64,000 nucleotides of DNA. It comes from an uncultured archaeon (GTDB taxonomy: Archaea > Asgardarchaeota > Thorarchaeia > Thorarchaeales > Thorarchaeaceae). The stretch is from assembly GCA_964458565.1 (NCBI GenBank), contig CAYWJO010000004.1, positions 1-64,000 of the forward strand, read 5' to 3'. The notes beneath the pieces were generated by a model. It searched no databases, had not been told where the DNA came from, and was given only the letters and a program-made list of their open reading frames with translations. Positions 5,394 to 6,889 of this stretch are shown one piece after another. Position 1 is the first letter of the stretch; each line of letters starts with the position of its first letter. Both the position numbers and the translations under genes were made by a program.

Positions 5394-5837
5394 GTGAATC
5401 CACAAATCCAGCCCATCGATATCAAGTCGACGCTCACACACGAGGTGACTACGAAATTAAACCCCGAGGTGAGTGTGTTCTCCAGTGGCCATAAGGCCAA
5501 TTTCACTGAGACTGCGTATACTGAGTATCCTTCTTTTGAATGTCTTGCGGAGTCATTCTTCAGATTAGCAGAATCTAGAATGAGTGACACAATGAAGCTT
5601 CTTTTGAAGATGTGTGCGCAACTACTAAGGTTCCATACACTCACTGTCACTGCTTTGGCAGATCAGCTCTCTCAGCGGAGCTCTGTACCTTACTCGACAG
5701 TAAAGTGGAATCTACGACTTTTAATGAAGCTGGGTCTGCTAGTTGGTGGTGATGCTGAGAATAGAGGACAAAGAGCGTTCTTGACGCCTGCCGCCTCTAT
5801 GCTAATTCACTATCTATCTAAAAGTAATGATATGTGA
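5394..5837 (+). CDS. Winged helix-turn-helix protein (start uncertain)
   Basis: C-terminal TVTALADQLS...PYSTVKWNLRLLMKLGLL...FLTP wHTH pattern. Confidence 0.7.
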   Translation: MNPQIQPIDIKSTLTHEVTTKLNPEVSVFSSGHKANFTETAYTEYPSFECLAESFFRLAESRMSDTMKLLLKMCAQLLRFHTLTVTALADQLSQRSSVPYSTVKWNLRLLMKLGLLVGGDAENRGQRAFLTPAASMLIHYLSKSNDM

Positions 5838-5866
5838 GAGAGGATTACCTCTCTCTCATTTTTTTT
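5835..5866 (+). terminator. Hairpin plus T-tract terminator
   Basis: GAGAGAGG-atta-CCTCTCTC followed by an 8-T run immediately after the stop codon. Confidence 0.6.
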
Positions 5867-5896
5867 CAACTTGAAGGATAAGGGTGCTGCCCTTCT

Positions 5897-5934
5897 CTCG
5901 ACCAATACAGCTGTGCTTTACATTTTGGTGTCAT
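5897..5934 (-). promoter_or_regulatory. Candidate SECIS element (eukaryote/Loki-type kink-turn core)
   Basis: Minus strand reads AUGAC-ACCAAAAUG-UAAAGCACAGC-UGUAUUGGU-CGAG: AUGA/GA core, ~9-bp helix, AAA in the apical loop. Confidence 0.6.
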
Positions 5935-6734
5935 GGAACCTTCTTGTCAAATATCTTCCATCCATCTTCTAGTTGAGAGTTGGCATCTTCAATAGTTTCA
6001 GCGGCAGACATGATAATTCTCACATTTCTGCTCTCCCCATTTTGAAGATCTCCTAAATTCCATTGAAGCCCAATTGCCACATCTCTGGGTCCTAGTTCAG
6101 ATGTTCCATTGAGGTCGCGTAGTTCCTCTGTGATATTCAGTTTTGTCGGTGATGCGACTGTCCAACAGTTAGGATTTGGGTATGAGTCTATTGCAACATG
6201 TAAAGGAGTATCATCATAAACATACATTATCCCCCTTTCCGAATCGAATTTTCCAAAATCATTTTTGTATGATTTTGGTCCACCAATATCGAAATCCATG
6301 AAGCTATAGACTCTCATATCTCTGATATTACCACCACTGATGTTAGTGCTAGAGAACCTCATCAGCATGTAGGGTTTGTTTCGGCTCCATGCGTCTATGT
6401 CGAATTTCATCTTGGGTTTTACATCCTCCAGAGGAATATGTTCGAGTGATACGCGAAGTAGGCCATCACTAGCTTCATTCTTCATCATCATGAAAGATTT
6501 GCTCTCAGTTGAAGAACTGAAACATGTTGTTTCATCTACTACATATGAGGTCCAGAATCCGCTTTTGTAATCAGCGGGATTCTTTAGCAACAGACGTTCG
6601 ACACCAGACCTGTCAATCAAACCAAGTCGTCTAACAAAGAATCCTTTGCGACCTTTTCCTCATGACACGCAATCGACATCATAGGAGATGTCCAATCGAG
6701 GGTAGTGAGTACCGGTTTCTAAGACTTCAGTCAT
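5931..6734 (-). CDS. Putative selenoprotein (267 aa; Sec at codon 25 in CxxU), beta-rich domain of unknown function
   Basis: ATG 6734 gives MTEVLETGTHYPRLDISYDVDCVS-TGA(6662..6660)-GKGRKGFFVRRLGLIDRSG..., in frame with track ORF 5931..6620; SECIS-like hairpin at the 3' end. Confidence 0.75.
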
Positions 6735-6889
6735 CTTTTTGTCACAGTCCTGTGCTATAACCATAAGGTTGATGGTTGGATTTAAATCTAGTTTCATATT
6801 CCTGTTTTATAAATGAAACAGCTTGACTAGGTCATAAAATTGATAAACTGTCCAATAGAGATTTTCACTGAATTTAAGGTGCGCACTAA

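Follow-up and report, generated by a model that had tools for sequence, protein, structure and literature searches.

The window, by which we mean the whole stretch of DNA that was analysed, is the first 64 kb (64,000 nt) of contig C4 in an Asgard archaeal assembly of 3.7 Mb (93 contigs, 41% GC). Its minus strand carries a candidate selenoprotein gene whose frame, followed back from a UGA stop codon, runs open across a single in-frame TGA (Table 1). The start was assigned to an ATG 24 codons before this putative selenocysteine (Sec) codon, which makes Sec residue 25 of 267; the ATG is conserved among orthologs and is preceded in them by a Shine-Dalgarno-like GUGAUC or GUGGUC, and conservation is absent for a further ATG upstream at 6797. 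The end of the gene and the sequence beyond it contain a candidate RNA element of about 87 nt (minus strand 5951-5865) with three helices: a lower helix (H1), an upper helix (H2) and a third hairpin (H3). A convergent plus-strand ORF (5394-5837, 147 aa) runs towards the element, the two 3' ends being 28 nt apart, and just past this ORF lies a terminator-like GC hairpin, GAGAGAGG-ATTA-CCTCTCTC with a T-run, at 5834-5859 of the plus strand; on the minus strand this hairpin sits about 10 nt past the lower helix of the element.

Table 1. Positions of the candidate selenoprotein gene, its RNA element and the Sec genes of the same genome (window positions, except where contig C1 is named)
Feature	Position	Strand	Remarks
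Candidate selenoprotein CDS	5931..6734	-	267 codons + UGA stop; conserved ATG of the orthologs taken as start
In-frame UGA, candidate Sec codon	6660..6662	-	Motif C-V-S-U-G-K-G-R; same aligned place in orthologs
H1 5' strand, UUUGAC AA GAAGG	5939..5951	-	Inside last codons of CDS; MFE fold, arm swap
AUGA of putative SECIS core	5931..5934	-	UGA 5933-5931 is the stop codon of the gene
Unpaired N (C, 5930) and H2 5' strand, ACCAAAAUG	5921..5930	-	8 conserved pairs, covariation
Apical loop, UAAAGCACAGC	5910..5920	-	Invariant AAA; GC..GC mini-stem
H2 3' strand, UGUAUUGGU, unpaired N (C, 5900) and 3' core GAG (5899-5897)	5897..5909	-	Ortholog alignment
H3, AAGGG-CAGCA-CCCUU	5880..5894	-	Pentaloop NNGCN; arm swap, alignment A8
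H1 3' strand, CCUUC AA GUUGAA	5865..5877	-	MFE fold, arm swap
PSTK-like gene	C1:17876-18592		129 bits, below curated cut-off
tRNA-SeC	C1:18648-18738		ARAGORN
SepSecS	C1:19450-20571		
SelB/EFSec	C1:21209-22105		294 bits, above curated cut-off

Homologs whose sources carry a name point to Thorarchaeota, within Promethearchaeota (Asgard). Of 60 related genomes searched, 36 belong to the same (Thorarchaeota-like) family, and 29 of these contain the gene. The 28 full-length orthologs from this family were carried into the RNA and UGA comparisons, and 26 sequences make up the protein alignment (A3). Their identity to the window protein is 37-49%, and every one of the 28 has the in-frame UGA of a C-x-x-U motif at the same aligned place, within V-E-C-x-S-U-G-x-G-R-x-G-F-Y and with homology on both sides of the UGA. 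Distant full-length homologs carry Cys at this position, as C-x-x-C(-x-x-C) in metagenomic sequences and as C-[IVM]-N-C in the genomes of family f24; the predicted exchange of Sec and Cys at this place is the classical pairing. Public gene calls of the family start after the UGA, stop at it or read it as W.

The protein itself has no match in Pfam or PDB sequence searches. Its AlphaFold model (pLDDT 92.4, pTM 0.91) is a beta supersandwich that resembles the N-terminal domains of GH94, GH15 and GH116 enzymes and the aldose epimerases. A 2024 survey lists seven Asgard selenoprotein families, and this one is not included, as far as the available part of that publication goes (PMC11227280); it is also missing as a selenoprotein from a 2026 review (PMC13188914) and from the other Asgard literature examined. 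As a selenoprotein, the host gene family thus appears to be new relative to the published Asgard lists.

The genome is a predicted user of Sec, judging from its gene content. A PSTK-like gene, tRNA-SeC, SepSecS and SelB/EFSec lie side by side on contig C1 (17876-22105), outside the window, and selD of the same genome has an in-frame UGA. No in-frame UGA was found within the Pfam matches of its FlpD/VhuD and large hydrogenase subunit.

In the original prediction, the stop UGA of the gene lies inside an AUGA that is followed by a C, a helix, a loop, the returning helix strand and CGAG. The minus strand from 5934 to 5897 reads exactly so, ...GUU CCA UGA C ACCAAAAUG UAAAGCACAGC UGUAUUGGU C GAG, and the features described for it, a helix of about 9 bp with an AAA in its loop and an optional AGC/GCU mini-stem, can all be seen. 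H2 has nine positions, of which two are G.U pairs and one is an A.A mismatch; alternatively it can be drawn with 10 positions and two mismatches (C.C and A.A). The apical loop is 11 nt long, with an AAA run and the possible AGC/GCU mini-stem.

Taken alone, this single sequence is weak evidence for a hairpin. At -4.0 kcal/mol (z +0.36), its folding energy is matched by 128 of 200 shuffled sequences; in wider contexts the z scores are +0.97, +1.49, +0.80 and -0.12, the last for the 101-nt context. In other words, single-sequence folding at 38, 51, 71 and 101 nt never beat the shuffles, and on this comparison the predicted hairpin does no better than shuffled sequence. We treat the folding-energy test, together with the search by a vhuU model described below, as insensitive because the helix is AU-rich and single-gene models fail to transfer in either direction. 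The pattern is also not rare in itself: a descriptor of core plus helix matches 419 of the 85,863 [A/G]UGA sites of the genome (about 0.5%), and one of all three helices matches 42 genomic sites, compared with 13 in a reversed decoy, and misses selD; by itself this second descriptor lacks the needed specificity. At a pre-specified site, the hairpin would arise by chance with a probability of about 5e-3, and the full layout with one of 2-5e-4. Both the folding energies and the 0.5% of sites that pass the descriptor would be in keeping with a chance hairpin beside a stop codon that happens to follow an A; this explanation is refuted by the covariation among orthologs, and we regard it as exceedingly improbable.

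The layout [A/G]UGA-N-helix-(G)UAAAG...-helix-N-[G/A/U]AG recurs in 28 of 28 same-family orthologs, which agrees with the expectation that TGA-containing orthologs would keep the hairpin. Their 5' core is AUGA in 24 cases and GUGA in four, and 27 of the genes stop at the UGA within it. At the 3' core, GAG occurs in 22, AAG in three and UAG in three, its A and G being invariant. The U, G and A of the 5' core and the AAA of the loop (A18-A20) are likewise invariant across the 28 orthologs; the fixed G and A on both strands of the core are compatible with a kink-turn. The apical loop is mostly GUAAAGCNNNGCA and is A-rich in the other orthologs. The three orthologs with a UAG 3' core (AUGA_UA) are L028, L036 and L049.

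The strands of the helix, by contrast with these invariant positions, vary freely between orthologs, with pairs such as GUCGGUGC/GCACCGAC, GCAAGAAC/GUUCUUGU and GGAGGUAC/GUGCCUCU. In a MAFFT alignment of the 28 orthologs (A1), columns 22-29 and 44-51 are 90.6% paired, with double-sided changes in eight of eight pairs; the covariation that had been proposed as a check is present. The covariation score is 0.664, compared with 0.237 +/- 0.022 in shuffled alignments, none of which (0/500) reaches the observed value, and sliding the partner strand by 1-3 columns lowers the pairing to 30-48%. RNAalifold, run without guidance, predicts exactly the same helix. Two parts of the predicted hairpin contribute nothing to this argument: a ninth pair, which is G-U in the window and G.A in most orthologs, adds no evidence, and the mini-stem, present in about 19 of the 28, never varies and is uninformative.

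The element extends on both sides of this hairpin. The MFE fold of 5955-5855 is a three-way junction in which H1 brings together the last codons of the gene and sequence downstream, and H3 follows directly after the GAG. When the H1 arms of different orthologs are exchanged, the energy changes from -9.93 kcal/mol for an ortholog's own pairs to -5.87 for crossed pairs, and none of 20000 permutations is as good; examples of such arms are GGCAAGAAG/CUUCUUGCC, CGACAGGAA/UUCCUGUCG and GCCGAGAG/CUCUCGGC. A count over fixed alignment columns finds H1 just 46.6% paired, a low value because its register and bulges differ between orthologs, and the support for H1 is less clean than that for H2 and H3. 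The arms of H3 covary (GGG/CCC, GAGG/CCUC, GGAG/CUCC) around a loop that is NNGCN across the orthologs, and the same exchange of arms gives -6.50 for own and -3.05 kcal/mol for crossed pairs, again with 0/20000 permutations as good. On a model-fitted alignment (A8), 79.9% of H3 cells are paired, with a double-sided change in four of five pairs. No paper recovered by a literature search links a SECIS to a three-way junction in archaea, as far as the available text of these papers goes; the conserved third hairpin, which makes the element such a junction, therefore appears to be new relative to the published text.

Conservation beyond a UGA codon could also mean that the codon itself is read through, as Sec or otherwise, and that the downstream region is coding. 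The frame of the window gene does stay open for 24 more codons past the terminal UGA. However, in other orthologs the frame past the stop stays open over very different lengths, the substitutions there are pairwise-compensatory rather than codon-like, and the same region follows a UAA stop in orthologs from a second Asgard family (f9, below). We consider this read-through very improbable.

Loss of the hairpin from homologs with Cys had been proposed as a further check. Four C-x-N-C homologs from f24 genomes, a small sample in which the DNA of the closer CxxCxxC homologs was left out, end at UGA, UAA, UAG and UAG. None of the four has a core-plus-helix match between -60 and about +200 nt of its stop, and the hairpin-only model (R1, below) finds nothing significant across their loci. 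A single AT-rich core-plus-helix match lies 225 nt downstream in one of them (L113); the background of 0.056 matches per kb per strand predicts about 0.1 in the 1.84 kb searched.

The same layout is found at other genes of this genome. Its vhuU ends ...GGC GGA UGA AGG..., that is, in an AUGA followed by one base, a helix of about 10 positions and a loop starting GAAAG; the returning helix is followed by one base, by GA and by the hairpin AACCC-CGCAA-GGGUU, and finally by CGCCGGUCAC, which pairs with GUGACUGGCG in the CDS. In 30 of 30 vhuU loci of the family GGAUGAAGG contains the UGA stop, with a three-helix SECIS behind it. The vhuU helices (alignment A5, 30 loci) are 95.8% paired over 24 pairs, 10 of which show double-sided changes, and pairing falls to 29-42% in slide controls. 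At the selD gene of the genome, whose 3' end reads CCAUGAUGA, the MFE fold (z -2.46; L009:2519-2600, C2) is likewise a three-way junction, and its hairpin is GCUGU-CGCAA-ACAGC. As selD has two consecutive UGA codons (CCAUGAUGA), either AUGA could be the core. The vhuU-type gene of this genome has 50 codons and the motif ...RCYDCULSC... and lies at C22:7120-6968 on the minus strand (L080:1425-1524), where it follows a truncated gene for a NiFeSe hydrogenase large subunit.

In the second Asgard family, f9, the gene is present in 63 of 68 sampled genomes, and the orthologs from it (n=20, L060-L079) have a conserved UGA in L-A-T-U-N-x-x-G-Y, without a Cys at -3. These orthologs have an element of the Loki type: H1 starts AAAUCCAA..., the core and upper hairpin read AUGA-U-UCAAAUAA-AAAAACC..GG.AAG-UUAUUUGA-U-GA, and the 3' part consists of H3 (ACUC-UGCUC-GAGU) and the returning H1 strand UUGGAUUU. 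The stop codon is mostly UAA and precedes the AUGA by 12-20 nt. The upper helix of f9, UCAAAUAA/UUAUUUGA, is invariant across about 20 genomes, and its lower helix and third hairpin covary. Between the elements of different genes only the AUGA, the AAA, the GA and the architecture are common.

Searches with models and patterns did not connect these elements. Rfam gives no SECIS match on the element in the window, either at the gathering score or at E up to 10, and the Lokiarchaeota elements are likewise without an Rfam SECIS match (PMC4989117). The strict lokiSECIS pattern (AUGA, 9 bp, 11 nt, GA/AA) has 29 matches over the genome, none of them convincing. We built two models from the element of this gene, one of the hairpin only (R1) and one of all three helices (R3), and a third from the 30 vhuU SECIS elements (R2). 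An Infernal model built from Asgard SECIS elements had been suggested as a way to score the hairpin, and it did not pick up the element: R2 finds nothing in the window at E up to 10, and among 25 ortholog loci it gives one non-significant match at the right place (5.7 bits). In the other direction, R1 and R3 do not find vhuU or selD; each of the models is dominated by gene-specific sequence. On its own genome R1 finds only its own element, the next matches (C30, C49) lying inside unrelated coding sequence. R3 finds its own element as well, and a 22.9-bit match on C27, inside a peptidase-like ORF, was dismissed as chance.

Failure of the vhuU model and of Rfam to recognise the hairpin could be taken to mean that this 3'-end structure has nothing to do with Sec and is either a stability or transcript-end hairpin or an L7Ae-binding regulatory kink-turn, its resemblance to a SECIS being superficial; its location at the 3' end of the transcript, followed by another hairpin and U-rich sequence, would suit such a role. 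Against this, the hairpin always accompanies a conserved in-frame UGA (28 orthologs here and 20 of f9), is missing from the four Cys-type homologs, and has its core motifs and three-helix layout in common with vhuU and selD, two accepted selenoprotein genes. Archaeal termination, moreover, needs U-tracts, not conserved AUGA/GA cores. We judge a function unrelated to Sec to be unlikely. Comparative sequence evidence instead suggests that the hairpin is very probably the core and upper helix of a functional eukaryote-like (Asgard-type) SECIS at the 3' end of a selenoprotein mRNA. The claim that the hairpin independently supports Sec decoding of the upstream TGA gains from the covariation, the shared layout of vhuU and selD, the absence from Cys homologs and the Sec machinery of the genome.

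How does this element relate to the SECIS types already described? In the strict lokiSECIS the AUGA borders directly on a stem of 9 bp; the 11-nt loop is A-rich over its first five nucleotides and closes with a G, and GA comes after the stem (PMC4989117). The element in the window is like it in having an AUGA, a stem of about 9 bp, an 11-nt loop with adenosines near its start, a GA after the stem and a position at the end of the gene. It departs from the strict definition in the one unpaired N.N between core and helix, in a loop that starts (G)UAAAG rather than AAAAA, and in the absence of the 'ultraconserved' terminal G, the loop ending in C here and in GCA in most orthologs. Also unlike lokiSECIS, it belongs to a different and unlisted host family and has a conserved H1 that reaches into the CDS as well as a third hairpin.

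The loose Asgard eSECIS model of 2024 fits in each of its published features. In the available part of that work, types I and II share a GA_[G/A]A core and start between -30 and +600 nt of the gene end; their upper stem is 7-15 bp long, tolerates two mismatches at most, and carries an apical loop of 8-20 nt in type I and a ministem in type II (PMC11227280). The element has the core (AUGA 5934-5931, GA(G) 5899-5897), a stem of nine positions with one mismatch or 10 with two, and an 11-nt loop; the loop starts UAAAG, with the AAA in 28 of 28 orthologs. The gene whose stop it overlaps contains an in-frame UGA, and the genome has tRNA-Sec, SepSecS, EFSec and a Sec-type selD. In the same partial source, the Thorarchaeia frhA eSECIS has a loop that starts G[U/G]AAA, like the GUAAA found here, and GUGA and AA variants of the core are reported as well; the UA 3' core of three of our orthologs is not listed there, and its published text, so far as available, does not mention a hairpin inserted after the 3' GA and ahead of the lower stem (PMC11227280).

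Two further SECIS types were compared as well. As in the eukaryotic SECIS (Rfam SECIS_1), there are an AUGA_GA quartet, unpaired adenosines in the loop, a 3' location and presumed action at a distance (726 nt), but the element has a shorter upper helix, reaches into the stop codon and the CDS and forms a three-way junction, and the eukaryotic covariance model gives no match at E up to 10. SBP2 is not known from archaea. The euryarchaeal SECIS (Methanococcales), with a GAA_A bulge and GC-rich stems, is likewise an archaeal element found 3' of the gene near its stop; by our reading of the sequence, the asymmetric GAA/A bulge and the 3-bp GC upper stem are both missing from the element described here, its core being AUGA/GA.

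These features lead us to the following hypothesis for the function of the element. The folded RNA would present a kink-turn-like AUGA/GA core and the apical adenosines, and would thereby steer Sec-tRNA(Sec) and its dedicated elongation factor towards ribosomes that pause 726 nt upstream, at the UGA of 6662-6660; this codon may then be read as selenocysteine in C-x-x-U. The kink-turn geometry, the binding of a factor, the actual insertion of Sec and a protective role of the overlap are what we infer here. For a ribosome with the terminal UGA in its A site, the lower helix would already be melted and the core covered. We propose that, since the ribosome unwinds H1 and occupies the core, there would therefore be no SECIS at that moment, and the terminal UGA would be read as a stop. 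Each terminating ribosome would melt the element, which would have to refold for the next round.

A stop codon inside the AUGA is, as an arrangement, already known from VhuU.1 of Lokiarchaeota, where the AUGA supplies the UGA stop (PMC4989117), and is said to be frequent. A minimal-distance argument for the SECIS and recoding has been published with it (PMC4989117). In the lineage studied here a UGA stop inside AUGA or GUGA is near-universal, being found in 27 of 28 orthologs, in 30 of 30 vhuU loci and in selD. It is plausible on these grounds that the placement of the stop inside the core prevents its recoding. The placement is not obligatory, because f9 orthologs stop at a UAA 12-20 nt upstream of the AUGA.

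Asgard SECIS elements are a proposed link between archaeal and eukaryotic selenocysteine decoding. The element described here would add independent, RNA-level support that a widespread hypothetical protein, truncated by gene callers, is a selenoprotein, and the 28, 20 and 30 aligned elements give a covariation-backed view of the whole element, including the codon-overlapping H1 and the extra hairpin. The consistent placement of a UGA stop in the SECIS core makes the minimal-distance recoding rule testable. We also put forward, tentatively and at somewhat less than even confidence, a more general proposal: the Asgard SECIS would be a three-way junction common to vhuU, selD and this gene across at least two Asgard families, H3 could dock an archaeal SECIS-binding factor or EFSec, and the host would be an eighth Asgard selenoprotein family, widespread and built on a non-thioredoxin beta-supersandwich.

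One ortholog places its stop differently. In L053 (genome G004, 1398-1499) the reading frame does not coincide with the core GUGA but closes at a UAA within the loop GUAAAG, which is either a real, deeper overlap of gene and element or an assembly indel.
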